From positions 261,703 through 325,702 of the forward strand of contig CAWKDT010000020.1 of assembly GCA_963848445.1 (NCBI GenBank): a stretch of 64,000 bases of DNA, in the 5' to 3' direction. Shown piece after piece: positions 30,501 through 64,000 of the stretch. Under the pieces are notes generated by a model. That model was given only the letters and a program-made list of their open reading frames with translations, did not search any database and was not told the DNA's origin. The first letter of the stretch is position 1. Each line of letters begins with the position of its first letter. Origin of the DNA: Candidatus Dormiibacterota bacterium. GTDB taxonomy: Bacteria; Chloroflexota; Dormibacteria; Aeolococcales; Aeolococcaceae. A program made the translations under genes and the position numbers.

Positions 30501-30759
30501 GGTCGCCGGCGTCGCGCGGTGCAGCGTCGCCTACGCAGCCGCGGGGGTCCATGCGGTGAGCGCTGCGTACAGCGGCGACCACGACTTCACGGGCTCGACA
30601 TCGCCGAGCCTCACCCTGACTGTGAGCCTGGATCCGTTGGTGCCGGACACCGGCGCGCATTCGACACCGTCGGTGTGGGGTGGCATCGCGGTCCTCGGTG
30701 GATTCCTGCTGCTGTGCCTGGGGATATTCGTCCGCCGGCGGGGTCGTTCAGCGGCGTAG
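27502..30759 (+). CDS. cell-surface protein with about 11 tandem bacterial Ig-like repeats and a sortase-type C-terminal sorting signal
   Basis: Signal peptide; about 95-aa repeats each with NPSxxGQxVTxTATV…GTVxFQDGGxxIxGCG…A.C…HSITAVYSGDxNFxxSTS; C-terminus LVPDTG + hydrophobic helix + RRRGRSAA. Confidence 0.8.
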   Translation: MTLGHRAWNLRGNRRRTGSRTARPLTAALAATAIALLSGGVAGHAVALSTTTLASGLNASIYGQPVTFTATITPVSPVPTGSVTFQDGGANIAGCVNRAVAARVAACTVSTLTAATHTITAVYGGNGTYAGSTSIAVIQVVNPGDTTAALGASADPSVSGQTVTYTATVTAIAPASGTRTGTVNFEDGGVTITGCGAKAVAAAGTATCAAAYAGPGSHSITATYSGDGNFAGSTSATFDQNVNQGATSTALGSSVNPSRTGANVTFTATVTATAPASGTRTGAMNFQADGVTITGCGAQAVAASGKATCVTNGLAVGTTAITAVYSGDANFTGSTSSTLTQVVNQGATATTLASSLNPSSTGVNVTFTATVKATAPASGTRTGTVDFQDGGVDIAGCGAQAVAAAGTASCTTNALVAGSHSITATYSGDANFVTSTSAPLAQTVMSTTSTVVASSVNPSVLGQDVQYTATVNGGPSVTGTITFRDGGASIAGCVAVPVSAGIASCTEAPTVGSHAITAVYSGDSADAASTSPAMSQVVGADGTTTVITTAVNPSVYGQSVTFTATVTANAPGAGTPTGKVTFQSGGANIAGCGNVTIVSGSATCTATTLSVGPHSIVGAYKGSTSFLTSTSGVFTQTVDQGATATVVASTVNPSVTGQAVAYTATVSVVAPAAGSLSGTVEFQDDGVTIAGCGAQSLVAGAASCTVTYAGAGDHAITAVYSGNTNFAASTSPSITQSVDGASTSIGLASPVNPSVAGQVVTITASVAVIAPGAGTPSGTVEFQDGGVDVAGCAAQALSGSGSSSCTTSLATAGTHSLTAIYSGDANFAGSASLSIDQTVIQASTGTAFAASLNPSVTGEVVTITATVTVSAPGAGTPTGTIDFQDGGATIAGCGPVPLSGPGSATCVTSFPTAGAHLITAVYSGDADFDSSTSPALAQTVAQGATTTTMASSSNGLVVAGYEVTLTAAITPASPASGAPTGAVEFMDGTTPVSGCTAQPLVAGVARCSVAYAAAGVHAVSAAYSGDHDFTGSTSPSLTLTVSLDPLVPDTGAHSTPSVWGGIAVLGGFLLLCLGIFVRRRGRSAA
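27650..30620. repeat. in-frame tandem array of about 285-bp units (about 10.5 copies) encoding the Ig-like domains
   Basis: The same about 95-aa protein unit recurs across 27.65–30.62 kb; copies are diverged but clearly periodic. Confidence 0.7.
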
Positions 30760-39476: not shown

Positions 39477-42413
39477 CTACTGAAACCAGCCCTCGATATC
39501 GATCACGGCGTTGACCGTGCCCGCGCTGTTGAAGAGCCCCACATCGCCGTCATGCGCGTCGGCGGTGGTATCGAGCTGCACCACCGCGAGGTTGGGCAGG
39601 ACCTGGTTCGCCGCGAGGTTGAGATCCGACGCGTGGGGATGGCTCAGGTTCGCCGGGTACAGCACGAGGTAGGTCGGCTGCGTCGAGAGGATCCCGGTCA
39701 GGTTGGCGATCACGGCGACCGCCGGAGTCCCGGCGGAGGTGGGCGGCACCCCACCCACACCCGCGACGCCGACGGTGCGGATCGTGCCCGCGCCCAATGT
39801 CTGTCCGGCGCATGGCAGATGCGATCCAGGCCGGGTGTCGCAGATGCGACTTGGCCCGATCGCCTGGTACTGCGATCCTGCCACCGCAGACGCGTCACCG
39901 AACCAGCCATTGGCATCGAGGATCACATTGATCGTGCCCGCGGCATTGTAGACGCAGACGGACGTGGCGTTGCCACCGGGGGCGGACGGCCCGAGCGCAA
40001 CCATGACGCGATTCGCCACCACGGCTCCGGCCGCGAGGTTGAGCGTCGAAAATGGCGGCGCATGAGTCCCGACGTACGTGCATGCGCCACTCGCGTTGGT
40101 AGGGAAAACGCTCAGGAACGTCGGCGAAGTCCCTGCCACACCCGTTAGATTGAGCACTGCAGCCTGCGCGGTGCCATCGCCTGGGATCCCGCTCGCTCCC
40201 GTCACCGCGACCCTGATGGCCGTGCCCGCATGCAATGCGGCGTTGGAACCGCAGCCACCGCGCGTATCGCACACTCGCACCGGGGCGATCGGATGAAACT
40301 CGCCGGCTGCGGTGCTCGATGCCGGGGGCTCGAAATACCCCTCGACGTCCGCGACGACGTTGACCGTCCCGAGCGCGTTGTAGATGCTCACCTCGCGCTG
40401 GCTGTCCGAGGCGCCGCTCTGGCCCAGCGTGACGGTCACGAGATTCGCGCTAGCCGTGTGTGCAGCGAAGTTGAGGTTCGACGCCTGCGGGCGTCCCGTC
40501 CCGTTGGGAAACACCGTCAGCAGGCTGAACGAGTTGTCAAAGACCGCAGTGGTGTTGATCACGACAGCCGTCGCATCAGCGGGGATCGGGTCTGTGCCGC
40601 CTGGCAGACCGGTGACGCCCGTGATCTGCAGGGTCCGCGTGGCTCCGGGCCCCAGCGCCCCCGGACCGCACTGGATACATGAGCCCGAGCGAGTGTCGAG
40701 GATGCGGAACGGCGTGACCGGCACGTAGTTGGCGAGGCTCGTGTAGATGTACCCGGCGCCGGCGGTGAGCGGGCTCGTGCCAAGCGTGTCGGACACCTGC
40801 ACGCTCACATAGCCGGCGGGGCCAGGCGGTGTCGTGAACGTGAACGTGGTGCCGGTGATCGAGGCGGGGGTGACGGAGACGCTACCGATCGTTGCCGTCA
40901 TCCCTGACTTGAACCCGACCCCCGAGACGGTCACCGTCTGACCGCCGGCGATCGGACCGGCGGCGGGCGTGACGGCGGTGATGTTGGGGCCGGACGGCAC
41001 GGCGTTCACCCGGTCACCGCCCTCCACGAAGATCATCCCGTTGGATGCGGACGGCGACGTGAAGTGATTGCTGCCGCTGATCGAGTAGCCGGCGAGCATG
41101 TTCCCGGTGCCGGCGTCGTACTGGTACAGCGTGTCGCTCACTGCGCTGACCGCCCAGACGCCGCCACCGACCACGATCGGTGGCTTGTCCGACGCCTGGC
41201 TCGTGTTGTGCCAGCCGAGGGAGAAGTTGTTGTTCGAGGCGGCGATCTGCACCGCCCGCAGCCCGTCACTGCATCCTACGAACACGGTCTCCACGCCGCC
41301 GACCATCGCGTACGCGAGGCTGCCGAAGGCCGCGTCGCTCGTCGCCGAGCACACCCGGTGGGACGCGATCCCGCCGCTGATGTGTCCGAGGGATGTGCTG
41401 TCGAGCAGGTAGCCCATGCCGCTCTTGCCCACCTCGAACACGCGGTTGGACGGGAGCTGCAGCGGCGTGGTCGATCCAAGATCGGCGTCGCTCGCGTTGT
41501 CCTCCCACCATGTGGGGCCGCCGCCGTGGTTTGCGTCGGTGACGCCGCTCGGAGCGAAGTAGTCGGCGACACTCAGCGTGGTGGGCGTGAGCTCGACGAC
41601 CGCATCGCTGTCGTCGTAGGCGTCGGTGCTGTTGGTGTGATTGCTATTACCGGTCGCGACGTACACGTCCCCGCCGGCGTCGATCGATGCGCCGCCGGCT
41701 GCCCACACGCCGGCCTCCATGTCCGTCGAGTTGTCCGCCGCGGACGCCCACCACTGCACCGTCCCGCTGCCCGTCTCCGGATACGACATGACGTAACCGC
41801 GATATCCGTCGGTGGCATTGTTCGGGTTGGTGCAGTCCCCGGCGAGGCCTCCCAGCGTCGCGTACACCTCGCCGCCGGCGACGGTCAGGGCGCCGCGCTG
41901 CTGCTGGTAGTTGGCGTCGAAGTTGATCCCGCTGCGGTTGCCGGGGTCGATGTTCACCTGCCGCGTGACCGCCCCGGCGAGCGTCAGCGTGACGAGGTCG
42001 AACTCGAAGTGCGTCGGACTGTCCTGGATCTCGGCGACCACGTAGATGTTGCCGGCGTCGATAACCGGCGTTCCGGTGATGCCCAGCGGCATGATGTCGC
42101 CACACGGGAAGTTGGCGGTGCGTGGTGTTCCGATGTGTTTGGTCCACTGAACCTGGCCCGTCGTCGCGTTGAGGGAATACACGGTGTCGTTCTCGGTGGC
42201 GACGACCACCTGGTTCCCCACGATCAGGGGCTGGCCGTAGAGCTGGCCGTCCAGCGCCGGAGAGGTCCACGGCGCCGTGCCGGCAAGGGCCTGGTCCGTG
42301 GTGTCGTCGCCCTGACGGGTGTTGTTCCCGTGATAGGTCGTCCAGTCCGCGGCGGCCTGCGTCAAGGCCAGCAGCGGCGCCACGGCCGCCAGGATGATCG
42401 GGAACCGGCGCAC
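39477..42413 (-). CDS. large secreted protein: PQQ-like β-propeller + IPT/TIG domain + three C-terminal about 110-aa repeats (xPxRxxDTR… type)
   Basis: GTG 42413 gives signal peptide MRRFPIILAAVAPLLALTQAAA|DW; propeller blades (TVYSLNATTGQVQWTK, LYQYDAGTGNMLAGY); IPT (PNITAVTPAAGPIAGGQTVTVSGVGF); 3 repeats each starting …P(V/I)xP(F/V/S)R(I/V)(L/C)DTR and ending …GWF/GYF. Confidence 0.7.
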   Translation of the reverse strand: MRRFPIILAAVAPLLALTQAAADWTTYHGNNTRQGDDTTDQALAGTAPWTSPALDGQLYGQPLIVGNQVVVATENDTVYSLNATTGQVQWTKHIGTPRTANFPCGDIMPLGITGTPVIDAGNIYVVAEIQDSPTHFEFDLVTLTLAGAVTRQVNIDPGNRSGINFDANYQQQRGALTVAGGEVYATLGGLAGDCTNPNNATDGYRGYVMSYPETGSGTVQWWASAADNSTDMEAGVWAAGGASIDAGGDVYVATGNSNHTNSTDAYDDSDAVVELTPTTLSVADYFAPSGVTDANHGGGPTWWEDNASDADLGSTTPLQLPSNRVFEVGKSGMGYLLDSTSLGHISGGIASHRVCSATSDAAFGSLAYAMVGGVETVFVGCSDGLRAVQIAASNNNFSLGWHNTSQASDKPPIVVGGGVWAVSAVSDTLYQYDAGTGNMLAGYSISGSNHFTSPSASNGMIFVEGGDRVNAVPSGPNITAVTPAAGPIAGGQTVTVSGVGFKSGMTATIGSVSVTPASITGTTFTFTTPPGPAGYVSVQVSDTLGTSPLTAGAGYIYTSLANYVPVTPFRILDTRSGSCIQCGPGALGPGATRTLQITGVTGLPGGTDPIPADATAVVINTTAVFDNSFSLLTVFPNGTGRPQASNLNFAAHTASANLVTVTLGQSGASDSQREVSIYNALGTVNVVADVEGYFEPPASSTAAGEFHPIAPVRVCDTRGGCGSNAALHAGTAIRVAVTGASGIPGDGTAQAAVLNLTGVAGTSPTFLSVFPTNASGACTYVGTHAPPFSTLNLAAGAVVANRVMVALGPSAPGGNATSVCVYNAAGTINVILDANGWFGDASAVAGSQYQAIGPSRICDTRPGSHLPCAGQTLGAGTIRTVGVAGVGGVPPTSAGTPAVAVIANLTGILSTQPTYLVLYPANLSHPHASDLNLAANQVLPNLAVVQLDTTADAHDGDVGLFNSAGTVNAVIDIEGWFQ
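39480..40515. repeat. three in-frame tandem repeats (about 330 bp each) encoding the C-terminal 'DTR' domains
   Basis: The same about 110-aa module occurs three times at the C-terminus of the 39477–42413 protein. Confidence 0.5.
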
Positions 42414-42684
42414 TCGAGCATTTTCACCCTTGACCGGCCGCGGGGATGGCGTTCCCGTCACGGCGCACCGCTCCTCGACCGCCGGTCGGCTTCGGCCGGC
42501 GGCTCTCAGGCGAGGAGCGGTCCGACTTTCGCGGCAGCCTGCCGGTCGCAGAGTAGGATCGCCTGATGGCAACGCCGCTCCGCCAGGATGCACGGAACAC
42601 CGCCGCGGTGACCGGGCGTTAGCAGTCTCACGTTTCCGAGGCACGAGGCGGTAGTGCCTCGTCCTCCAGGCGACCGGTAGACCG

Positions 42685-45081
42685 TTGCGCATCGCGTTCG
42701 TCTCGTCCGCCGTGCCCCGCCGTTGCGGCATCGCCACCTTCTCCGCCGACCTCATCGCCGCGGTGCATGCAAGCGATCACACAGTGACGTGCCGCATCGC
42801 CGCGATCGAGGAGCCGGCCGTGCTCCGGCCGTATGGATCGGACGTCCGGTGGCGGATACGGCAGGGCGATCCGGAGAGCTACCGCGCCGCGGCGCGGGCG
42901 ATCAACACCTCGAACGCGGACGTGGTGAATGTGCAACACGAGTTCGGTCTCTACGGCACGTGGACGCAACCCAAATTCGTCGCGGGCCGGTGGACCGAGA
43001 GCGTCTATGACGACTGTCTCCAGCCGTTCCTCGAGGAGCTGCGCAAACCCGTCGTCGTGACCATGCACACCGTGCTGCCGCAGCCGACTCCCTCGATTCG
43101 AGCGACGGTTCGCGCCATCGCCGAGCGCTGCGACGAACTCATCGTGATGGCATCGACCGCTGTTGATCTGCTCGCGAACGACTACGAGCTCGTGAAGCCT
43201 CCTCGGGTCATCCCCCACGGGATGCCGGTGATCGAGCCGCATGGACGTCTGCGATTCAAGGACAAGCTCGGGGTCAAGGGGCGCACGATCATCTCGACCT
43301 TCGGTCTTGTGGACCCACGCAAAGGGCTCCAGTACATGATCGAAGCCATGTCCCGGGTGATCGCTGAGCACCCGGACGCCCTTTACCTCATTGCCGGACA
43401 GACCCATCCGGATCTTCTGCGCGCGCAGGGCGAGGAGTACCGGAATTCGCTGGTCGCGCAGATACGGTCGCTGCAACTCGACGATCACGTCGCGTTCATC
43501 GACACCTACATGACCCAGCGCGACATCATCGAACTGCTGCTCGCGACCGACGTCTATGTGACGCCGTACCTCGACCCCAACCAGATCACGAGCGGCACCC
43601 TTTCGTACGCCCTGGGCGCCGGAAAGGCGGTCGTCTCGACCCGGTACCTGCACGCTGCCGAGGCGCTGAGCGATGGCCGCGGTGTGCTCGTCGACTTCCG
43701 TGATGCGGGACAGCTGGCACATGCGGTGACGGCCATCCTCGGCGACACGATCGCGAAGAAAGCGCTGGAGGATGCGGCGTTCGCATATGCGCATAACGCG
43801 ACATGGCCTCGATCAGCCCAGGCCTTCCTGGGGGTGATGAGCGAGGCCGCAACGATGCGGAAATCTCGTGGCGTCTCGCCGGCGGTGGCCACGCACGACA
43901 TGGGTCGGCGCTCGAATGAGAATCCGATCCTCTCAGCAGCCGACGTTCGCCCGTCACTCCCCGGTCTCGAGGTCATCTCGGTGTTCAACGCCGCGGCGGC
44001 GCGGGTCGGCGACGAGGTGGTGCTGCTCATCCGTGTCGGTGAGCGACCGAGCCTCGGCGTGGTCCCTCCGGCCGACGCCCTCACGCTCGACCTGACGCGC
44101 CCCGAGCCCGAGATCAAGCCGCTCGGTCCCGGCCACGGAGCCGACGACGTCATCGGAATCGCCTTCCTGGACGCCAAGCAGGAGCCGGCGCGCGTCGTGG
44201 AGGTGTTCATCCCGAGGGACACGCCCGGGCTCGACCTCAGCGATCCGCGTGCGATTCGCTATCGCAATCTCACCGGCGGTTTCACGGCCGCGGCGGACGA
44301 CGTCAGCGACTTCCTCACCCAGATGTCGCACCTGCGCGTCGCGCGCAGCCACGACGGCATCCACTTCGAAGTCGAGAACGAGCCCGCGGTGGTGCCGGCA
44401 AATCGTTTCGAGGAGTACGGCTGCGAGGATCCGCGGGCCACGCTCATCGACGGCGTCTGGCATATCACCTATGTCTCCGTGAGCCGGATCGGCATCAGCA
44501 CCAGCCGGCTCACGACCACGGACTTCCGCTCATTCGAACGGCACGGGGTCATGTTCCTGCCCGATCACAAGGACGTCGTGCTGCTTCCCGGCCGGGTCGG
44601 AGGACGGTACGCAGCGCTGACGCGGCCGATGCCCCAGTCGTTCGGCCGCGTGCTCGGCATCTGGATCGCGTTCTCCGACGATCTGGTCCACTGGGGTGAG
44701 CACGCGCCGCTTGCACTGCCGCGGCCCGGCATGTGGGATGAGCTGCGTACCGGGGCGAGCGCCGTCCCATTCCGCGTCGAACAAGGCTGGCTCGAGATCT
44801 ACCACGGCGTCGATCGCAACACGCGGTATGCGCTCGGCGGCCTGCTGCTCGACGGCGACGACCCGAGCCGGGTGATCGCCCGGTCCCCGGAGCCGATCCT
44901 CGTGCCGACCGCGCCATACGAGCGCGACGGCCTCTACAACGACGTCGTGTTCACCTGCGGGCACGTCCCGCTCGATCCCGAGGGGAAGGACATCCGTGTC
45001 TACTACGGTGCCGCCGACAGCTGCCTCGCGGTGGCGGACTTCACCGTTCGAGACATTCTTGACCAAATGACTCCGTGCTGA
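42685..45081 (+). CDS. bifunctional-looking fusion: N-terminal GT4 glycosyltransferase + C-terminal GH130-family (mannoside phosphorylase/β-mannosidase-like) domain
   Basis: GT4 region MRIAFVSS…VTPYLDPNQITSGTLSYALGAGKAVVST (EX7E-like); GH130 5-bladed-propeller motifs in the C-terminal 330 aa (WHITYVSV, EIYHGVD, VVFTCGHV, YYGAADSCLAVADF). Confidence 0.75.
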   Translation: MRIAFVSSAVPRRCGIATFSADLIAAVHASDHTVTCRIAAIEEPAVLRPYGSDVRWRIRQGDPESYRAAARAINTSNADVVNVQHEFGLYGTWTQPKFVAGRWTESVYDDCLQPFLEELRKPVVVTMHTVLPQPTPSIRATVRAIAERCDELIVMASTAVDLLANDYELVKPPRVIPHGMPVIEPHGRLRFKDKLGVKGRTIISTFGLVDPRKGLQYMIEAMSRVIAEHPDALYLIAGQTHPDLLRAQGEEYRNSLVAQIRSLQLDDHVAFIDTYMTQRDIIELLLATDVYVTPYLDPNQITSGTLSYALGAGKAVVSTRYLHAAEALSDGRGVLVDFRDAGQLAHAVTAILGDTIAKKALEDAAFAYAHNATWPRSAQAFLGVMSEAATMRKSRGVSPAVATHDMGRRSNENPILSAADVRPSLPGLEVISVFNAAAARVGDEVVLLIRVGERPSLGVVPPADALTLDLTRPEPEIKPLGPGHGADDVIGIAFLDAKQEPARVVEVFIPRDTPGLDLSDPRAIRYRNLTGGFTAAADDVSDFLTQMSHLRVARSHDGIHFEVENEPAVVPANRFEEYGCEDPRATLIDGVWHITYVSVSRIGISTSRLTTTDFRSFERHGVMFLPDHKDVVLLPGRVGGRYAALTRPMPQSFGRVLGIWIAFSDDLVHWGEHAPLALPRPGMWDELRTGASAVPFRVEQGWLEIYHGVDRNTRYALGGLLLDGDDPSRVIARSPEPILVPTAPYERDGLYNDVVFTCGHVPLDPEGKDIRVYYGAADSCLAVADFTVRDILDQMTPC

Positions 45082-51720: not shown

Positions 51721-52827
51721 ATGACAGCGAACGCGCGAGTGACAGCGGCTCCCTGGAGAGCGGACGATGAGCTCGTCAGTGCCGCTGAGATCCTGATTCT
51801 CCGTGGCAAGGAGCTCGGTCACCTCACGCCCGACGAGATCGTGCAGGGCCTCCCTGCCGTCGAGGCCGACCCGGATCAACTCGAACGCGTCTTCCGGGCC
51901 TTCAGAGAGCTGGGGATCGAGGTCGGTGACGGCGAGGGGGACGTCGTCGACGGCCACGAGCCGGACGACCTGCTGGAGGCGGAACCCGCCGACACGTATG
52001 CGTTTGACGACCCGGTGAGGATGTATCTCAAGGAGATCGGTCGAGTCTCGCTGCTGCGCAAAGAGCAGGAGGTCGAGTACGCGATGCGCATCGAGCTCGG
52101 CGATGAGGAGGCGCGCGACAAGCTCACCGAGGCCAACCTCCGCCTCGTCGTTTCCATCGCCAAGAAGTACCTCGGCCGAGGGATGCCCTTCCTCGATCTC
52201 ATCCAGGAAGGCAACACGGGGCTGATGCGCGCCGTCGCGAAGTTTGACTACCGGCGGGGCTACAAGTTCTCGACGTACGCGACGTGGTGGATCCGCCAGG
52301 CGGTGACGCGAGCGCTCGCCGACCAGTCACGCACCATCCGCATCCCGGTGCACATGACCGAGGTCATCAACAAGCTCACCCGAGTGTCGAGGCGGCTGTT
52401 TCAGGAGCTCGGACGCGAGCCTGATGACGAGGAGATCGCCGAGGAGATGGGCCTCACACCGGACCGGGTGCGCGAGGTCGTGAAGATGTCGCGCGAGCCG
52501 GTGTCGCTGTCGAGCCCGGTCGGCGAGGACGGCGACGCCGAGTTCGGTGACTTCATCGAGGACAAGGACGCGACCACGCCGGTGCAGGCCGCCTCATTGA
52601 CCCTGCTTCGCTCGGAGGTCGAGGACGCGCTCGATTCCTTGACCCCGCGCGAACGCCGCGTGGTGCAACTGCGCTACGGCCTCGTCGACGCCCGCCAGCT
52701 GACGCTGGAGGAGGTCGGCAAGCGATTCGGGGTCACCCGGGAACGCATCCGTCAGATCGAGGCGAAGGCGCTGCGCAAGCTGCGCCACCCGTCCCGCAGC
52801 AAGCGGCTGACAGACTTCCTCGAGTAG
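51721..52827 (+). CDS. RNA polymerase sigma-70 factor, group 1/2 (HrdB/SigB-like)
   Basis: Regions 1.2–4 all present ([51 protein letters not shown], region 4 [15 protein letters not shown]…[20 protein letters not shown]). Confidence 0.9.
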
Positions 52828-52834
52828 CGCCGCC

Positions 52835-53131
52835 TCAGAGCAGGCGCTGCACCGCCCCCACTTTCCGCTGCATCTCGCCCGAATCATTCCCGGCGCGATC
52901 GTCGATCTTGATGACGGTGCTTGTGCGCCGCACGCCCGCCGCGGTGGCGAGAGTCTCGTGGCAGCGCGCGAGCATGGCGAACACCCGGTCGCGCGGTCCC
53001 TCAACCTCGGTCCCCATAGCGCCGAGGCGGAAGGACAGGCCGCTCTCCTCGATGATCCGGATGGCGGCGGCCACGTGCTTCGAGTACGAGCCGGTGCCGT
53101 CGTCGGGGGCGATGCTGAACCAGGCAATCAC
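52835..53131 (-). CDS. MTH1187/YkoF-family small ligand-binding protein
   Basis: GTG start after GGAGGG; 98 aa IAWFSIAPDDGTGSYSKHVAAAIRIIEESGL… ferredoxin-like ACT fold pattern. Confidence 0.55.
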   Translation of the reverse strand: MIAWFSIAPDDGTGSYSKHVAAAIRIIEESGLSFRLGAMGTEVEGPRDRVFAMLARCHETLATAAGVRRTSTVIKIDDRAGNDSGEMQRKVGAVQRLL

Positions 53132-53244
53132 GCTCAGGCCCTCCTGTTGCTGTCTGATGTCAAACAGAATGACGCGTGAGCTGATGGCGCGGCCCTCACC
53201 TTCCCCGGTACCCTCACGGTCCGAGTAACAATCTGGGAGCCGGC

Positions 53245-56200
53245 ATGCGCTGTTCGAACTGTGGCGCCGAGAACCGTCCTGGCAGCAAGTTCTGCTCGGA
53301 ATGCGGGACGGCGCTTGCCCGCACCTGCCCTTCGTGCTCGACCCCAGTCCGTCCGGACGCGAAGTTCTGCGACGAGTGCGGCGCGCCGCTGTCGGAGAGC
53401 GCGACGCCCGCGATGGCGCGAGTCGCGACGCCAGCGCCCGTGCTCGACAGCGCCACAACCGCGGAGCGCCGCCTCGTCTCGATCCTGTTCGCGGATCTCG
53501 TGGGCTTCACCGCGCTCTCCGAGAAACGGGACGCCGAGGAGGTGCGGGAGCTGCTGACCCGGTACTTCGACACGTGCCGCGCGGTGGTCACCCGGTACGG
53601 CGGCGTGGTGGAAAAGTTCATCGGGGACGCGGTGATGGCCGTGTGGGGCGCGCCCTCCGCTCACGAGGACGATGCCGAGCGCGCGGTGCGCGCAGCGCTC
53701 GAGCTGATCGAGGCCGTGTCGCTGCTCGGTGGCGAGGTCGGTGAGCCGGCGCTGCAGGCGCGTGCCGGCGTGCTCACCGGTGCCGCGGCGGTCACCTTCG
53801 GCGCCGACGCCCAGGGCATGGTGGCCGGCGACCTGGTCAATACCGCGTCGCGGATCCAGTCGGAGGCGACCCCCGGAGCAGTGCTCGTCGGCGACGCCAC
53901 CCGAAGCGCAACCGAGGCTGCGGTCGTCTACGCGGACGCGGGGGAGCGTTCGCTCAAAGGCAAGGCGGAGCCCGTGCGGCTCTGGCGGGCGCTGCGCGTG
54001 GTGGCGATGGTCGGCGGTAGGCAGAAGTCGGAGGGGCTCGAGGCGCCGTTCGTCGGGCGCGACCGTGAGCTGCAACTCATCAAGGATCTGTTCCATGCCA
54101 GCGCCGAGCAGCGCAAGGCACACCTCGTGTCGGTCGTGGGCATCGCCGGGATCGGCAAGTCGCGGCTGTGCTGGGAGTTCCACAAGTACATCGATGGCAT
54201 CGCCGAGCTGGTCTACACCCATCGCGGCCGGTGTCTGGCGTATGGCGAGGGCGTGACGTACTGGGCGCTCGCCGAGATGGTCCGGATGCGTGCCGGGATC
54301 ACCGAGGCCGAAGACTCCGCATCGGCGCTCGTCAAGCTGCAGGCATGTCTGGACGAGTTCGTCCCGGACGCGGACGAGCGCCGGTGGGTGGAACCCCGGC
54401 TCGCCCAACTCCTGGCGCTCGAGGAGCGCGCAACCCAGGAACGCGAGGACCTCTTCAGTGCCTGGCGGCTGTTCTTCGAGCGGCTCGCCGACCGGCATCC
54501 GACGGTCCTGGTCTTCGAGGACATGCAGTGGGCGGACACCTCGCTGCTCGAGTTCGTGGAATACCTGCTCGAATGGTCGCGCAACCACGCGATCTACGTG
54601 GTGACCGCCGCGAGACCGGAGCTCGTCGACCGGCATCCCACGTGGGGTGCGGGCAAGCGCAACTTCACATCGGTCTTCCTCGAGCCACTCGCGGCGACCG
54701 CCATGGAGCTGCTGCTCGATGGACTGGTTCCCGGGTTGCCCGACGAGCTTCGGGAGCAGATCCTGCAGCGCTCGGAGGGCGTGCCGCTCTACGCGGTGGA
54801 GACCGTTCGAATGCTGCTCGACCGGTCGCTGCTCGAGCGTGCCGGCAGCGTGTACCGGCTGACCGGCGCCGTCGAGGACCTCGAGGTCCCGCAAAGCCTC
54901 CACGGGCTGATCGCCGCGCGATTGGACGGGTTGCGACCCGAAGCTCGCCATGTGCTTCAGGACGCGGCGGTGCTCGGGAAGACGTTCACGGTCGCGTCGC
55001 TCGTGGCGGTGAGCGGTGTCCAGGCGTCCGAGTTGCAGCCGCTGCTCGCGGAGCTGGTGCGCAAAGAGGTGCTTTCCGTACAGGCTGATCCGCGCTCGCC
55101 GGAGCGAGGCCAGTACGGGTTTCTGCAGGATCTCGTGAAACGCGTTGCGTACGAGACGCTCTCGAAGCGTGATCGCAAGGAGAAACACCTTGCCGTGGCG
55201 GCATGGTACGAGCAGTCGTGGGGCGGCGAAGAGGGTGACGTCGTCGAGGTGATCGCCGCGCACTATCTGGAGGCGTACAACCTCGCCCCGCAGGACCCGG
55301 ATGCGGACCAGGTCAAGGATCGAGCGGCGGACGTGCTCTTTCAGGCCGGTGAGCGCGCTGCGTCACTCGCGGCCAACCTCGAGGCGGAGCGCTACTTCGA
55401 GCAGGCATCACTGCTGGTGCCCGATTCGGCGCGGCAGGCCGAGATGCACGAGCGCGCCGGGCAGATGGCCGCGCGCACCGGTCGCAACGCCGTCGCGACC
55501 GCGCACCTCGAGCGGGCGATCACCCTGTACGAGAGCGAGCATCTCCCGCATCCCGCTGCACGCGCGCTGTCCCGGCTCGGCATGGTCGAGGCGGTGAGTG
55601 GCCAGCTCGACCGCTCCATTCAGCGAATGGAGGGCGCCTTTGCGGTGCTCGCCAACGACACGCCGGACGAAGATCTCGCGTCGCTCGCGGTGCGTCTCGG
55701 GTCGTTGCTGCACTTCAAAGGCGAGACCGAAGCCGCGAGGATGCGCCTCGAGATGGGCCTGGATATCGCCGAGAGGCTCGGACTCTCCGAGCTCGTTTCG
55801 CAAGCGCTGAACGTCAGCGCGATGCTTGCCATGCAACGGCGGCACACCGAGGAGGCGATGGCGCTCTTTGCGCACGCTTTGAAGATCGGTGTTGACAACG
55901 ACCTCCCGACAGCCACGGTTCGCGCCCATTTCAACCTCGCGGACCTGCTGTGCCACCGTGACCGCTACTTCGAGGCGCTCGATCACTATCGGAGCGCGCT
56001 CGCACTCACCCGGAAGATCGGGGACCGATCATATGAGCGGAGCACGCTCGCCGAGCTCGCGTTCAATCTCGTGCGAGTCGGCGAGTGGGATGAGGCCGCT
56101 GAGTTCGCGGGGGGGCTTCCCGAAGATGAGGTGCGCAGCGCGCCGGCTGATGTCCTGTCGCTCCTTGCCTTCGGCGAGATGCCGGTCGAACGCGGTCATG

Positions 56201-56799
56201 TCGAGGAGTTCGAGCTCCTGCTGACATGGATGGCGCCACTGGCGTCGTCGGATGACTGGCAGGCAGGCTCATGCTTCCTCGCGAGCCGCGCGTGCTTGCG
56301 ATGCGCTGAGGGCAGGTATGGCGAGGCCCTGGAGGATGCCGAGGCCGCGATCACCCTCGCCGCCCGGCTGGGCGGTGCGAGTCACCAGAGCGTCAAAGCC
56401 GGCTACCGGGCGGCGTGCGAAGCCGCATTCGCGCTGAGCGACCTGACAAAGGTCGAGGAACTGCTGGTGTTCGTCGAGCGGCTCGGAGCGGGCGAACGGC
56501 CACCGTATCTCCATGCGCAGAAAGAGCGATTTCGCGCCCGGCTCGCCGCCATCAGAGGCAGGGCCGCCGATGTCGAACCGTCCTTCATCGAGGCGGAGGA
56601 AACCTTCAAGCAGCTCGGGATGCCGTTCTGGCACGCCGTCACGCAGATCGAGCACGCGGAGTGGCTGATCGCGCAGGGAAGGCCGGCCGCGGCGCAGCCC
56701 ATGCTCACCGAGGCCGGGAGGGTGTTCGAGCGCCTCAAGGCGCGCCCGTGGCTGGACCGGGTGCAGCAGACGGCACCCGGAGCGGTGACCGCTTCCTGA
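53245..56799 (+). CDS. multidomain adenylyl cyclase: double zinc-ribbon + class-III cyclase (CHD) + STAND/AAA_16 NTPase + C-terminal TPR-like helical array (paralog 1)
   Basis: CSNCGAENRPGSKFCSECG…CPSCSTP…CDECG; CHD with all catalytic residues (FADLVGFT, EKFIGDAVMAVWG, VNTASRIQSE); P-loop VVGIAGIGKSRL, Walker B VLVFEDMQWAD; about 600-aa helical C-terminus; no HTH. Confidence 0.85.
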   Translation: MRCSNCGAENRPGSKFCSECGTALARTCPSCSTPVRPDAKFCDECGAPLSESATPAMARVATPAPVLDSATTAERRLVSILFADLVGFTALSEKRDAEEVRELLTRYFDTCRAVVTRYGGVVEKFIGDAVMAVWGAPSAHEDDAERAVRAALELIEAVSLLGGEVGEPALQARAGVLTGAAAVTFGADAQGMVAGDLVNTASRIQSEATPGAVLVGDATRSATEAAVVYADAGERSLKGKAEPVRLWRALRVVAMVGGRQKSEGLEAPFVGRDRELQLIKDLFHASAEQRKAHLVSVVGIAGIGKSRLCWEFHKYIDGIAELVYTHRGRCLAYGEGVTYWALAEMVRMRAGITEAEDSASALVKLQACLDEFVPDADERRWVEPRLAQLLALEERATQEREDLFSAWRLFFERLADRHPTVLVFEDMQWADTSLLEFVEYLLEWSRNHAIYVVTAARPELVDRHPTWGAGKRNFTSVFLEPLAATAMELLLDGLVPGLPDELREQILQRSEGVPLYAVETVRMLLDRSLLERAGSVYRLTGAVEDLEVPQSLHGLIAARLDGLRPEARHVLQDAAVLGKTFTVASLVAVSGVQASELQPLLAELVRKEVLSVQADPRSPERGQYGFLQDLVKRVAYETLSKRDRKEKHLAVAAWYEQSWGGEEGDVVEVIAAHYLEAYNLAPQDPDADQVKDRAADVLFQAGERAASLAANLEAERYFEQASLLVPDSARQAEMHERAGQMAARTGRNAVATAHLERAITLYESEHLPHPAARALSRLGMVEAVSGQLDRSIQRMEGAFAVLANDTPDEDLASLAVRLGSLLHFKGETEAARMRLEMGLDIAERLGLSELVSQALNVSAMLAMQRRHTEEAMALFAHALKIGVDNDLPTATVRAHFNLADLLCHRDRYFEALDHYRSALALTRKIGDRSYERSTLAELAFNLVRVGEWDEAAEFAGGLPEDEVRSAPADVLSLLAFGEMPVERGHVEEFELLLTWMAPLASSDDWQAGSCFLASRACLRCAEGRYGEALEDAEAAITLAARLGGASHQSVKAGYRAACEAAFALSDLTKVEELLVFVERLGAGERPPYLHAQKERFRARLAAIRGRAADVEPSFIEAEETFKQLGMPFWHAVTQIEHAEWLIAQGRPAAAQPMLTEAGRVFERLKARPWLDRVQQTAPGAVTAS

Positions 56800-58576
56800 T
56801 CAGTCCCCGCTTGTCTGCCCGAAGGTGAGCGAGGCCGACGGATGCGTCCGTGCCAACCGCGCCTGCGCGCTCCCCAGTGCGGTGGGTGAGAGGTTGGCGA
56901 CCGTCATGGCGTTGACGAAGTCGTCTCCGTTGATGCGGTAGATCGCGCACGGTGCCACGGTCTTCACCGTCGCGGTCCGAGCGCGATGCTCGAGCAATCC
57001 GATCTCGCCGAAATAGTTGGGTGGGCCAAGCACGCCGAGGGACTTCTCGACTCCCGCCTCGCCGGCCGCCAGGATCTCGACCTGACCGTCGGTGAGGACG
57101 AAGAAATCGTCCGCATCTGCGCCCTCGCGAATAAGCACCGTGCCGGCCTCGACCTTCTCCTCCACCGCCGCTCTGGCGATGCGCTCCAACGCCGCGCGAG
57201 TCGCGCCGGCGAAGATGTCGAGGCTCTGCAGCACGAGCGATGCGCGGTTCGATCGCGGAGAGCTCGCGCAGTGCTCGCAGGTCGAGGACGCGGATCCACG
57301 GATACGCGCAGATGCAGAGCGCGGGAATCGCGAATCCCATGATGAGGAGTGTCGCGGTGAATCCCACGCTGCCGAGCAGGATGGGCATGAGCAGCGCGCC
57401 GAGCGAGATGGCGGACAGCACGAGCGCGAAGAAGACTCCGAAGACTCGCGCGACGACCTCGGGTTTCACGAGGCGCTGCAACGCCGTGATCGCGAGCACG
57501 TCGACGACGATGGTCCCCGCGCCGCGCACCACCTCGAGCACGAACGCGATCCACGGCGAGTGCACGATCGTCAGGAGGGATGTCGGCAGGCAGTACACCG
57601 CCATCCCGATGACGATGATCCGCCCGAGCCGGCCGGCGGATGCGACTCGATTCATGAATCCGGCGATCAGGATCCCTCCGACCCCGAGTGCAGCGAGCAG
57701 GTAGCCATATCCGCTGCTGCCGGTTCCCAGCTGATTCTTGCTGATGACCACGAAGAGCACCGTGTCCGTCCCGTAGACGAAGCTCGCGAGGATGCTGAAA
57801 CCCGCAAGGAGCGTGACGCTCGGCGACGACACGAATGCGCGGAAGCCGACTCCCATCTGCTTGAGCGGTCCCGCGGTGCCGCCCTCGGTGATGTCCGTGG
57901 GATGGCTTCTGGTGCGCATCCGGCTGACCACCAGTGCCGAGAACCCGAACGTCGCGGCGTTGACACCGAACACGACCGCCGGCGGGCTGAAGAGCAGCAG
58001 CACGCCCGCGATCGCGGGCCCGACGATGATGGACAGGTTCTCGACCACCGATTGCGCGCTGTTGGCGGCCGCGAGGTGCTCCTCACCGACGATGATCGGT
58101 GTCGTCGCGCGGGCGGCAGGGTCGTATGAGGACGTTGTGATCGAGGTGAGCGCAGCGAGCACGATCGCCAGCACCACGGGCCCGTTCAGCGCCGCGACGA
58201 CGGCCAGACCGGTCTGGAACGCGAGCGCAAGCGAATCGAGACTCACCATCAAACGCACGCGCTCCATCCGATCGGCGATCAATCCACCGATGGGGCTGGT
58301 GACGAGCGCCGTGAGGAAGCGCGTCATCGACGCCGCCGCAACCCACGCCGGTGAGTGCGTCGCGTTGAACACGAAGACCACGAGGGCGACGTTGTAGGCC
58401 CACGATCCGCTCATCGAGATGGTCAGCCCGCTGAACAGCAGCCGGTAGTCGCGGTTGCGGAACAGCGAGCGGTAGCCCACCCGGGGCGTCGCGTCATCAG
58501 GGCTCCGGCCGGTCAGCCGCGCGAGGAGACGGCGCCTGACCGAGGGCTTCGGCTCCGCTGCGACCTGCGTGCTCAT
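56800..58576 (-). CDS. MFS transporter fused to a C-terminal cyclic-nucleotide-binding (CNB) domain; apparent frameshift at the junction (about 57235)
   Basis: 12-TM MFS body (MSTQVAAEP… to …CICAYPWIRVLDLRALRELSAIEP), then in the +1 frame LQSLDIFAGATRAALERIARAAVEEKVEAGTVLIREGADADDFFVLTDGQVEI…YFGEIGLL (canonical CNB); the MFS frame continues as Arg-rich junk. Confidence 0.7.
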
Positions 58577-58657
58577 GCGTCGCCGCGCGCGGCGCGGAAA
58601 CCCCTGACCCTGCGATTCACGCGCGGAAGCGTACTCGCCGCCGATACCCTATGGGAC

Positions 58658-59541
58658 ATGCGGCTGCGGCTCTGCGGCACGAGGGGATCCACGCCCGCGC
58701 CGGGCGTCGACTACACCCGGTACGGCGGTCAGACATCGTGTGTGGCGGTGGTGTCGGACGGCGGCGAGTGCCGTCTCATCCTCGACGCGGGCACCGGCCT
58801 GCGCAGGCTGCCCGCGGCGCTGGACGGCGCGCCGTTCAGCGGCAGCATCCTCCTCACCCACCTCCACTGGGACCACACGCACGGCCTGCCGTTCTGCCCG
58901 TCCGTCGACAACCCCGGCGCGCGGACGGCCCTCTACATCCCCGAGCAGCCGGGCGGTGACGCCGAGGAGATCCTCGCCCGCGCGATGTCGCCGCCGCATT
59001 TCCCGATCCGCCCGCGCGAGATGCGCGGATCGTGGCAGTTCGAGCACCTCAGCCCGGGCGAGCATCGCATCGAGGGCTTCGACGTCCTGGCGCTCGAGAT
59101 CCCTCACAAGGGCGGGCGCACATTTGGGTACCGGGTCTCCGACGGTCACACATCCATCGCGTACATGCCGGACCATGCGCCGATCGCCCTCGGCCCCGGG
59201 CCGGACGGGTTCGGCCCGTACCACGAGGCGGCCGTGCAGCTCACCCAGGGTGTCGACCTGCTCCTCCACGATTCGCAGTACACGAGCGAGGAATTCCCCG
59301 CGCGGGCGCATTTCGGGCATTCGAGCATCGACTACGCCGTCGGCCTTGCCGCACACGCCGGCGTGCGGCGGCTCGTGCTCTTCCATCACGATCCCTGGCG
59401 ATCGGACGAGCAGCTCGACGGCATCGTCGCGCGCTGGTCCGATGCGCCGGTGCCCGTGAGCGCCGCGATCGAGTGGGATGTGCTGGACGTCGGCGGCGCC
59501 TCCGACCCACGGGTCGAGCGGCAGCAAAGTACGCTCCGCAC

Positions 59542-59545
<4 letters not shown>
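58658..59545 (+). CDS. MBL-fold metallo-hydrolase
   Basis: HxHxDH motif (LLTHLHWDHTHGLPF) plus downstream His/Asp ligands (HDSQY…GHSS…FHHD); TGA overlaps the GTG start of the next cyclase gene. Confidence 0.75.
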
Positions 59546-63150
<3,605 letters not shown>

Positions 63151-63256
63151 CCGGCGCGACACGTCGCCGGCGATGGTGCATCCTCGCTTTCCCGGACTTG
63201 GGTAGTCGTCGCCGGATTCCCGATCTGAACTCGCGAACCAGTAAGCTCCTCTGGCG

Positions 63257-64000
63257 ATGAACTGCCCTGCCTGCGGAGCAGAGGTCCGCGCCGGACGCCG
63301 CTTCTGCCCGAAGTGCGGCGCCGCACTTGCGCTGGCATGCATCTCCTGTGGAGCCCCGTATGAGGAGGGCGACGCCTTCTGCGGTGAGTGCGGCGCGGCG
63401 CTCGCCGCCGGGGTTGCCGCACCCCCGCCGCCACCGGCCCCGATCCTGCTCGTGGCTCCCGAACGTGCCGGGCTGACCGAGCGGCGGCACGTTTCGGTGC
63501 TCTTCGCCGACCTCGTCGGCTTCACCGCCCTCTCCCAGCAGCGCGATGCGGAGGACGTGCGCGAGCTGCTGACCCGGTACTTCGACACCGCTCGCACCGT
63601 GATCAGGCGGTACGGCGGCACCGTCGAGAAGTTCATCGGCGACGCCGTGATGGCAGCGTGGGGCGTCCGCGAGATTCAGGAGAACGACGCGGAGCGGGCC
63701 GTGCGCGCCGCGCTCGAGCTCGTCGATGCCGTGGCCGCCTTCGGCGAGCAGGCGGGCATCCCCGGGCTCCAGGCACGGGCCGGGGTCCTCACGGGCGAGG
63801 CGGCGGTCAACCTCGGCGCGACCGACGAGGCGCTCCTTGCGGGCGACGTCGTGAACACCGCGAGCCGGGTGCAGGCGGAGGCCGAGCCTGGCACCGTCCT
63901 CGTCGGCGAGAGCACCCGCAACGCCAGCGACGCCGCCATCGAGTACGCGGACGCGGGGACACGTCACCTCAAGGGCAAGACGGAGCCGATCCGGCTCTGG
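63257..64000 (+). CDS. multidomain adenylyl cyclase–STAND–TPR protein (paralog 3, 5' part only; continues beyond the window)
   Basis: MNCPACGAEVRAGRRFCPKCG…CISCG…CGECG zinc ribbons; CHD FADLVGFT/EKFIGDAVMAAWG/VNTASRVQAE. Confidence 0.8.
   Translation, partial: MNCPACGAEVRAGRRFCPKCGAALALACISCGAPYEEGDAFCGECGAALAAGVAAPPPPPAPILLVAPERAGLTERRHVSVLFADLVGFTALSQQRDAEDVRELLTRYFDTARTVIRRYGGTVEKFIGDAVMAAWGVREIQENDAERAVRAALELVDAVAAFGEQAGIPGLQARAGVLTGEAAVNLGATDEALLAGDVVNTASRVQAEAEPGTVLVGESTRNASDAAIEYADAGTRHLKGKTEPIRLW

Follow-up and report, generated by a model that had tools for sequence, protein, structure and literature searches.

The closest described relatives of the proteins discussed here are Rv0386, Rv1358, and Rv2488c of Mycobacterium tuberculosis. 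Proteins of the Rv0386 type are about 1,100 amino acids long and join a cyclase to a MalT-type signal transduction ATPase with numerous domains (STAND), a tetratricopeptide repeat (TPR) region, and a LuxR-type helix-turn-helix (HTH) domain, and the cyclase activity of Rv0386 is stated in a preprint to have been demonstrated experimentally (10.1101/2024.03.06.583649). An N-terminal class III cyclase, a STAND ATPase, and TPRs follow one another likewise in the products of three genes (cyc1, cyc2, and cyc3) in a 64,000-nucleotide stretch of the genome of an uncultured soil bacterium assigned to Candidatus Dormibacterota (GCA_963848445.1, contig CAWKDT010000020.1, positions 261,703 to 325,702; hereafter the window). 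These cyclases differ from the Rv0386 type in having no C-terminal LuxR/GerE HTH domain and in carrying an added N-terminal double zinc ribbon (DZR). Located with them are a gene for a major facilitator superfamily (MFS) transporter with a cyclic nucleotide-binding (CNB) domain and a gene for a metallo-beta-lactamase (MBL) fold hydrolase. On balance, we favor the view that this cluster is a chromosomal cyclic nucleotide signaling circuit, in which cyclases, a CNB-carrying exporter, and an MBL phosphodiesterase (PDE) use an ordinary second messenger.

The features of the cluster, in window coordinates, are as follows (cNMP, cyclic nucleoside monophosphate; ORF, open reading frame; aa, amino acids; L numbers denote loci from related DNA).

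53245..56799, + strand: cyc1, 1184 aa, with Pfam matches to DZR, Guanylate_cyc, AAA_16, and TPR_12
53251-53382, + strand: double zinc ribbon of cyc1 (Pfam)
53473-53970, + strand: class III cyclase domain of cyc1 (Pfam)
~54046-55314, + strand: predicted STAND P-loop NTPase of cyc1 with helical and winged-helix arm (AAA_16 at 54046-54573; fold from a structure model)
55315-56796, + strand: TPR-like sensor array of cyc1
56800..57234, - strand: cNMP-binding ORF (Pfam domain at 56905-57159; PF00027, 70.8 bits), the C-terminal part of an ancestral MFS-CNB fusion
57236..57238, - strand: one-base insertion (extra C) that splits the MFS frame from the CNB frame, private to the window relative to L001, L002, and L003
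57241..58576, - strand: MFS transporter part, ~445 aa, exporter type with 12 transmembrane segments, of the MFS_3/DHA3 kind
58658..59545, + strand: MBL-fold metallo-hydrolase (Lactamase_B_2), 295 aa, THLHWDH motif at 58856-58876, separated by an 81-bp spacer from the divergently oriented MFS gene
59542..63150, + strand: cyc2, 1202 aa, GTG start, architecture as in cyc1
59548-59679, 59770-60279, 60352-60906, and ~61639-63147, + strand: DZR, cyclase, AAA_16, and TPR regions of cyc2
63257..64000, + strand: cyc3, which runs past the end of the window; its first 248 aa include DZR (63263-63394) and cyclase (63485-63988) domains

Three large cyclases with STAND and TPR modules

A preliminary description of this DNA had assigned one architecture to three head-to-tail genes. 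This is borne out in full for cyc1 and cyc2, whereas for cyc3 the window holds the DZR and cyclase domains and the remainder is seen in the L002 ortholog (1196 aa), which has both AAA_16 and TPR regions. All three genes lie on one strand, but only cyc2 and cyc3 form a direct tandem, with the MFS-CNB and MBL genes separating them from cyc1. The Guanylate_cyc (PF00211) scores of cyc1, cyc2, and cyc3 are 72.3, 83.8, and 81.6 bits, respectively, relative to a cutoff of 21.9. Matches to DZR/Zn_Ribbon_1, AAA_16 (82 and 79 bits), and TPR_12 (56 to 71 bits) are present in cyc1 and cyc2, and TPR_MalT reaches 32 bits, which is under its cutoff. The gene junctions are also as originally described. The stop codon of the MBL gene overlaps the cyc2 GTG start by 4 nucleotides (GTGA, 59542-59545), and the stop codons of cyc1 and the CNB ORF abut in TGATCA (56797-56802). 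The cyc2 GTG lines up with the initiator Met of cyc1 ('MRC..C') and of cyc3, and the GTGA overlap between MBL and cyc2 recurs in L001.

The absence of a C-terminal LuxR HTH had likewise been claimed, and neither GerE (PF00196) nor any other HTH was matched by Pfam in cyc1 or cyc2. GerE is also missing from the Pfam lists of the 120 best homologs. At two other loci, stand-alone proteins with TPR_MalT plus GerE (L005 13673-15388) and with HTH_77 plus TPR (L004 13607-15430) directly adjoin single cyclase-STAND genes. Such proteins could provide in trans the DNA-binding output that the cyclases do not carry.

To evaluate the catalytic site, residue conservation was counted over 123 aligned family members, all three copies in the window included. 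The metal-binding residues D84 and D128 and the transition-state residues N199 and R203 are invariant (123/123), and the base-contacting Lys, K124, is present in 122 of 123. The two metal-binding Asp residues, the Asn, and the Arg reside on one chain, which is the homodimeric type. Among solved structures in the Protein Data Bank (PDB), the best relative of the domain is CyaB from Pseudomonas aeruginosa (3R5G, E 2e-24), and the domain is closest overall to CyaB and other active homodimeric cyclases. The preliminary description had noted a complete catalytic set that includes a purine-selecting Lys. The set is indeed complete for catalysis and the Lys is there, but the description does not extend to base selection because the partner of Lys124 is Met in 118 members, Leu in 3 (cyc3 among them), and Ile in 2, rather than Asp or Thr. 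This partner residue precedes the catalytic Asn by seven positions. In the alignment it falls opposite the Thr of CyaB, and it occupies the place of the Asp that specifies adenine in mammalian C2 domains. Neither the canonical adenine pair (Lys with Asp or Thr) nor the guanine pair (Glu with Cys or Ser) is matched. With a non-canonical Lys-Met pair, the sequence does not reveal which base is used, and cyclic AMP is the default expectation, given the conserved Lys, rather than a conclusion.

The P-loop NTPase that follows is similarly well preserved. Walker A (GIAGIGKS) retains K305 in 122 of the 123 proteins, the remaining one being the cut-off cyc3, and Walker B (VLVFEDMQWAD) retains E425 and D426 in 120 to 121. 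An AlphaFold (AF2) model of residues 255-720 (predicted local distance difference test score, pLDDT, of 80) was searched with Foldseek. Its best match is PH0952 (6MFV, 'STAND protein with TPR', E 7e-9), followed by Avs3 (8DGC) with a template modeling (TM) score of only 0.31. MalT (8BOB) is matched with a TM score of 0.52-0.58, and plant NLRs, CED-4, and ORC/Cdc6 rank lower. Searches of this part against the PDB by phmmer and by profile gave TPR matches or nothing, with no solved STAND relative among them, and the classification therefore comes from predicted structure. Judged by that model, the module is a true STAND NTPase and resembles the MalT type most.

The paralogs differ most in their C-terminal arrays. 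The N-terminal ~700 aa are 54-77% identical between paralogs, depending on the domain, whereas the TPR regions are 28-49% identical, in agreement with the contrast between conserved N termini and diverged C termini reported initially. Sensor diversification, which had been read into this contrast, is not specifically demonstrated, because the TPR region is also the faster-evolving part between orthologs. Relative to P0008, identity is 85-90% for the cyclase and STAND domains, 68% for DZR, and 64-79% for TPRs. By the Nei-Gojobori method, orthologs have ratios of nonsynonymous to synonymous substitution rates (dN/dS) of 0.03-0.10 in the cyclase and STAND domains and of 0.07-0.18 in the TPRs. The TPR sensors are faster evolving yet under purifying selection, with no sign of an arms race at whole-domain resolution. 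Diversification of the sensors under positive selection was considered and ruled out, as the whole-domain dN/dS values are well below 1.

Proteins of this kind are numerous. More than 8,000 database proteins match the cyclase at E <= 1e-10, and the top homologs share the length and domain set of the proteins in the window. They are annotated as 'adenylate/guanylate cyclase domain-containing protein' or 'class 3 adenylate cyclase/TPR repeat protein', and the architecture is thus common and already annotated, although uncharacterized. A scan of species-representative genomes revealed the family in Candidatus Dormibacterota at 55-80% identity and in Gaiellales/Thermoleophilia of the Actinomycetota at 53-58% identity. 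An exact-sequence look-up with cyc1 gave no matching record, and a literature search combining Dormibacterota with adenylate cyclase yielded no papers.

The metallo-hydrolase and the CNB-carrying transporter

Atypical class II PDEs (Rv1339, Corynebacterium glutamicum CpdA, and YfhI) are defined by PF12706 together with the motif [T/S]HxHxDH (PMC9293780). The MBL protein of the window matches PF12706 (Lactamase_B_2) with 73-73.9 bits and has the sequence T67-H-L-H-W-D-H73, in which H68, H70, D72, and H73 are invariant among 41 orthologs. The NCBIfam model NF041851 ('cyclic nucleotide-degrading phosphodiesterase') matches it nearly full length, but with 38.9 bits relative to a cutoff of 400. As a control, an Rv1339-type sequence scored 431 bits with this model, which was taken as confirming its family membership. 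An hhalign comparison of the MBL-family profile from the window with this control sequence gave a probability of 97.3% over 249 columns at 29% identity. The family appears to be an uncharacterized sister group of the Rv1339 family.

Structure prediction is consistent with this placement but is less discriminating. Foldseek searches with an AlphaFold model of the MBL protein (pLDDT 85) returned RNase Z, the PhnP-family diphosphatase, and YhfI as equally good matches (E ~1e-12), with TM scores of 0.79-0.81 for YhfI, while Apyc1 and yeast PDE1 rank lower. By this prediction the fold falls among nucleotide phosphodiesterases, and it does not fix the substrate. Sequence and profile searches against the PDB gave only partial RNase Z/ElaC matches, and YhfI and Apyc1 emerged only in the fold search. 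The Anti-Pycsar Apyc1 model (PF23023) has no match to the window protein even at E 10, and it is weakly recorded for some orthologs.

The strongest support for a role of the MBL protein in acting on cyclic nucleotides comes from gene context. Its orthologous group is conserved at ~60-65% identity from Dormibacterota into Actinomycetota, where we sampled five genomes (Aeromicrobium, Nitriliruptorales, Acidimicrobiales, and two metagenome-assembled genomes, or MAGs; loci L153-L158). A cyclase of a different type (Response_reg-Guanylate_cyc) is encoded at most 6 kb from the MBL ortholog in all five. A ~335-aa cNMP-binding protein is encoded at most 2 kb away in four of the five, directly adjacent in three, and the CNB and MBL genes overlap by 4 nucleotides in L154 and L156. 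That another type of cyclase has the same partners in a second phylum is good evidence that the MBL family acts on cyclic nucleotides. This conserved triad suggests an undescribed family of MBL-type cNMP phosphodiesterases separate from the Rv1339 equivalog. The earlier proposal that the MBL protein is a candidate PDE is thereby strengthened, on the basis of its distant full-length homology to Rv1339-type proteins, its signature motif, and the position of its orthologs beside cyclases and CNB proteins.

The putative receiver of the signal combines an MFS exporter (MFS_1, 104.7 bits; MFS_3, 101.5 bits) with a CNB domain. Further matches of the MFS part are to TIGR00900 and, below threshold, to EntS, Tet(V), and Mef. 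In the CNB domain, the phosphate-binding cassette FGEIGLLEHRARTAT includes the ribose-binding Glu and the phosphate-binding Arg, and the FGE...RTA pattern is intact. The preliminary description had presented the two parts as one fused protein. Their domains and an ancestral fusion are evident, but in the window the two frames differ by one base. DNA alignment with L001, L002, and L003 reveals an extra C near 57237 ('cgcatcgCtcgtgctg' in the window, 'cgcatcg-tcgtgctg' in these relatives), and the MFS ORF as written continues out of frame to 56735. When the extra base is removed, the result is a 591-aa protein that is identical to P0242 at 587 of 591 positions. MFS and CNB form a single ORF in eight relatives (L001, L002, L003, L006, L007, L008, L011, and L014), and the 120 best MFS-CNB homologs carry MFS_3, MFS_1, and cNMP_binding in single proteins of 468-642 aa, which is why we regard the fusion as ancestral.

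The frame break in the window stems either from a recent mutation or from an error of assembly. In the ENA contig with 99% identity (L001 16297-23555), cyc2 and cyc3 orthologs are both broken in two, giving ORFs of 664 and 532 aa for cyc2 and, for cyc3, an ORF of 809 aa plus one cut by the locus end. These breaks are absent from the window and L002, which suggests indel noise in these assemblies. We also considered the CNB ORF as an independent gene starting from GTG at 57234. This was rejected because the relatives are all fused, the MFS frame continues as an Arg-rich stretch out of frame, and L001 points to assembly indels.

Gene linkage and the proposed circuit

The preliminary description had acknowledged that the adjacency of these genes might be random. 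Anchoring on the cyclases, we found an MFS-CNB ortholog within 10 kb at 10 of 17 unique Dormibacterota loci, an MBL ortholog within 10 kb at 8, and at least one of these partners at 12, whereas ~0.1 of 17 is expected by chance for a single-copy gene in a genome of 3-5 Mb. Anchoring instead on MFS-CNB in metagenome loci (unique, at least 8 kb long), about 17 of 26 carry one to three cyclases of this family, and the linked loci include MFS-CNB proteins that are only 38-43% identical to that of the window (L133/L136 and L006). At least four gene orders are observed across Dormibacterota, as listed below with arrows marking direction.

cyc, <-MFS-CNB, MBL->, cyc, cyc (the window, L001, L002, and L008)
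<-MFS-CNB, MBL->, cyc, cyc, (cyc)
cyc, cyc, (cyc), MFS-CNB->
MFS-CNB-> ... cyc

The adjacency of cyclase and MFS-CNB genes is therefore not random. The synonymous divergence (dS) exceeds 1 relative to L003 and L007, and linkage that is kept through rearrangement and through saturation of synonymous sites argues for functional coupling. This coupling is not obligate. In one metagenome lineage (L135-L137; e.g., L136 8053-9678 and 17597-18808), two MFS-CNB paralogs that are 38% and 29% identical to the MFS part of the window are located ~9.5 kb apart, and MFS-CNB is thus not always single-copy.

Other cyclic nucleotide proteins are encoded nearby in some relatives. Regulators of the CRP type (cNMP_binding plus HTH_Crp_2) are found 2-6 kb from MFS-CNB (L105 13076-14125 and L012 14838-16403), weaker second CNB matches occur in L014, L096, and L108, and no CRP-type regulator was detected in the window. 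Proteins with HD_5/HD domains (HD-GYP-like) also adjoin the cluster at L003 5293-7059 and L005 17010-18842, one being a Response_reg-HD_5-Response_reg-GerE fusion beside MFS-CNB and another a 610-aa HD_5 protein beside MBL. It is possible that these are additional nucleotide phosphodiesterases.

On this basis, it is reasonable to propose the following mechanism. The C-terminal TPR array of each cytoplasmic receptor cyclase would sense a ligand or partner protein, which would relieve autoinhibition of the MalT-like STAND NTPase and permit exchange of ADP for ATP and then oligomerization. Oligomerization would bring the N-terminal class III domains together to make a 3',5'-cNMP, since for activity these domains must dimerize and share their active sites. 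We infer this mode of activation from the MalT paradigm and from the location of active sites across the class III dimer interface. Three STAND cyclases with different TPR sensors would produce one cNMP. The CNB domain of the MFS_3/DHA3-type exporter would read this messenger and alter the efflux of a substrate, and in related genomes the nearby CRP-type regulator might read it as well. Finally, the co-transcribed MBL enzyme, a distant relative of the Rv1339/CpdA/YfhI PDEs, would remove the messenger. The self-contained cNMP circuit suggested in the preliminary description is supported by the recurrent linkage, by the homology of MBL to Rv1339-type PDEs, and by the presence of MBL orthologs beside other cyclases.

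Several observations weigh against this proposal. The cyclase subfamily is biochemically uncharacterized, and its second base-specifying residue is Met or Leu instead of Asp or Thr. The MBL protein scores far under the cutoff of the Rv1339 equivalog (38.9 versus 400 bits), its predicted fold is no closer to YhfI than to RNase Z and PhnP-family enzymes, and it adjoins cyclases only in the Dormibacterota subclade whose MFS-CNB proteins are at least 81% identical to that of the window. Family members in Gaiellales/Thermoleophilia have neither partner gene nearby, and the long MFS-CNB loci L096, L108, L113, and L122 have no cyclase in reach. In the window itself, the effector gene is frameshifted.

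Some of these observations would be expected if the cluster were a loose neighborhood, in which a large paralogous cyclase family feeds a global cNMP pool that is read mainly by CRP-type regulators. MFS-CNB and MBL would then be one target among many or unrelated to the signal, and MBL might be an RNase Z- or PhnP-like enzyme with another substrate. We regard this as a possible but clearly less probable explanation. The abundance of homologs is compatible with it, as are the several loci per MAG and the arrays of two to four genes. MFS-CNB and MBL are absent near all 66 Actinomycetota cyclase loci, many of which have tandem cyclases, and near 5 of 17 Dormibacterota loci, and RNase Z and PhnP-family proteins are among the best matches of MBL in sequence and fold searches. 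However, a loose neighborhood does not readily account for linkage that persists through rearrangements down to ~40% MFS-CNB identity, for MBL orthologs that again accompany a cyclase and a CNB protein in a second phylum, or for the 4-nucleotide overlap between the MBL stop and the cyc2 start. It is far less plausible that the cyclase domains do not signal at all and serve as nucleotide-binding or dimerization modules of a STAND scaffold, with output through protein contacts of the zinc ribbon or TPRs. Inactive cyclase domains are common in multidomain conflict and signaling proteins (PMC7159879), and the base-specifying pair is unusual here. Nevertheless, metal-binding and transition-state residues that are invariant in 123 of 123 proteins would be unlikely in a non-catalytic domain, and the linked genes for a CNB receiver and a PDE-like enzyme imply a diffusible cNMP.

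A defense function had been offered in the preliminary description as a secondary alternative to a signaling circuit. In an antiviral or conflict system, the STAND-TPR part would recognize phage proteins in the manner of Avs or NLR proteins, the cyclase would make an alarm nucleotide as in Pycsar or Pucsar, the CNB membrane protein would be an abortive-infection effector, and MBL would lower the background signal. A 2026 preprint predicts an immune-related role for a clade in which cyclases are joined to STAND modules of the NACHT or AP-ATPase kind (10.64898/2026.08.12.744502), so that the idea is a reasonable one. This prediction, the second rank of Avs3 in the Foldseek results for the NTPase module, the non-canonical Lys-Met pair, and the presence of the sensors as tandem paralogs could all be accommodated by such a function. 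However, in a scan with PADLOC models no Avs model was matched (threshold E <= 0.01), and the Avs3 TM score is just 0.31. Matches of the PycC models do not extend beyond the cyclase domain, where their scores (E 1e-18 to 1e-21) are similar to that of the generic Pfam model, and the PycTIR models cover only the CNB part (model positions 27-121 of 288). No TIR domain was found, nor is an adjacent CNB-TIR or CNB-small-transmembrane effector present; the effector is a full 12-transmembrane MFS exporter rather than a TIR protein or a pore former with two to four transmembrane segments. The flanking genes encode a sigma-70 family sigma factor, an ammonium transporter, an aminotransferase, and a Na/Ca exchanger, with COX1 and glycosyl hydrolases and transferases farther out. 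Strains of 91-99% identity have these three cyclases in unchanged order, dN/dS is 0.03-0.18 across all domains including the TPRs, a CRP regulator is encoded near the cluster in related genomes, and close relatives are essentially absent from viral contigs, with one distant match. Given the generic nature of the PADLOC matches, the housekeeping neighbors, and the stability of the cluster among strains, the defense alternative has no positive support, and we consider it quite unlikely. Equally speculative is the idea that the Lys-Met pair yields a non-canonical product, either a pyrimidine cNMP or a product of relaxed specificity. The diverged TPR sensors, the CNB-gated membrane protein, and MBL would then be an unrecognized chromosomal surveillance system akin to 'immune clade 1' with an MFS effector, which also strikes us as improbable.

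The distant viral match is in L152 4911-11293 (IMG/VR UViG_3300047160_027395), where two tandem cyclase-AAA_16 genes encode proteins of ~1050-1080 aa that are 32% identical to cyc1. No phage hallmark genes were found among the six ORFs scanned in this locus, which is probably host DNA or a misclassified contig.

If the favored signaling circuit is correct, this cluster would be a compact, testable case of STAND oligomerization switching on a dimer-dependent cyclase. To our knowledge, such a switch has been proposed for Rv0386-type proteins and never demonstrated. The cluster would also offer a first handle on an MFS exporter that is directly regulated by a cyclic nucleotide. In addition, it would bring to light a second family of cNMP phosphodiesterases with the MBL fold, one that is widely conserved, occurring in Dormibacterota and in many Actinomycetota, that is separate from the Rv1339 equivalog, and that is uncharacterized. 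These findings add physiology to Dormibacterota, a phylum known almost wholly from metagenomes. The significance is moderate because the component families are already annotated and the logic of cyclase, receiver, and phosphodiesterase is conventional. Of the leads it offers, the candidate for a new PDE family and the MFS exporter linked to cNMP are the most useful.

Genomic setting and comparison with known systems

The region has a G+C content of ~69%. Its closest relative is an ENA metagenome contig of 619 kb (P0001) that is 99% identical, and the next closest is GCA_936421045, which is 91% identical; gene order in both is as in the window. The window represents a strain that is 98-99% identical to ENA ERZ25039458 contig_10567 and is distinct from that contig. 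A scan of 52800-64000 for promoters and terminators gave nothing above shuffled expectation. There are no tRNA genes within the window, and no further search for mobile elements was made. Elsewhere in the window, ~10 tandem units of ~300 nucleotides (100 aa) that are 60-80% identical occupy 27650-30630 (+ strand), with recurring motifs 'AVYSGDxNFxGSTS' and 'GxVxFQDGGxxIxGC', and are probably part of a large secreted protein with Ig-like repeats. Antisense ORFs predicted in this stretch by crude gene calling have no Pfam matches. The region 39477-42776 (- strand) encodes a protein of 1099 aa that combines a PQQ_2 beta-propeller with an IPT/TIG domain, and a PQQ-repeat protein is also encoded upstream of the lone cyclase of L004.

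Among known systems, the likeness to Rv0386 is one of architecture, which is the level at which the proteins were compared, and the specificity pair differs, being Lys-Met in the window cyclases and Gln-Asn in Rv0386. MalT and PH0952 share with the window proteins the Walker A and B motifs, a C-terminal helical-repeat sensor, and, by analogy, presumed ligand-induced oligomerization. In the window proteins, however, output comes from an enzyme at the N terminus and not from a DNA-binding domain at the C terminus. The 'TOMM system kinase/cyclase fusion protein' family (TIGR03903) is homologous over the cyclase, ATPase, and TPR regions (222.7 and 231.6 bits, model positions ~265-1070). These scores are below the 705.75-bit cutoff, the match begins after the kinase region, and the window cyclases have no N-terminal kinase. 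No TOMM biosynthesis genes are present among the neighboring genes examined.

The transporter also has possible precedents. Rv3239c and Rv3728 were reportedly listed in a survey by McCue et al. in 2000 as mycobacterial MFS proteins with a cytoplasmic cNMP-binding domain. Unlike the MFS-CNB protein of the window, they are said to carry an extra patatin/NTE esterase domain, the comparison here being one of domain content rather than of relatedness. Pycsar and Pucsar systems likewise pair a class III-type cyclase with a CNB-carrying effector, and some of their loci have multiple cyclases. Pycsar cyclases, however, are small and stand-alone, the effectors are CNB-TIR or small transmembrane proteins rather than an MFS transporter, and the loci reside in defense islands, a context that differs from that of the window. 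No self-encoded PDE is described for the Pycsar and Pucsar loci considered here. For the candidate PDE, the closest parallel is with Rv1339, CpdA, and YfhI (also written YhfI). Although the window MBL belongs to a separate, uncharacterized orthologous group (38.9 versus 400 bits for NF041851), it shares with these enzymes PF12706, the signature motif, full-length profile homology, and a predicted YhfI-like fold with a TM score of ~0.8.

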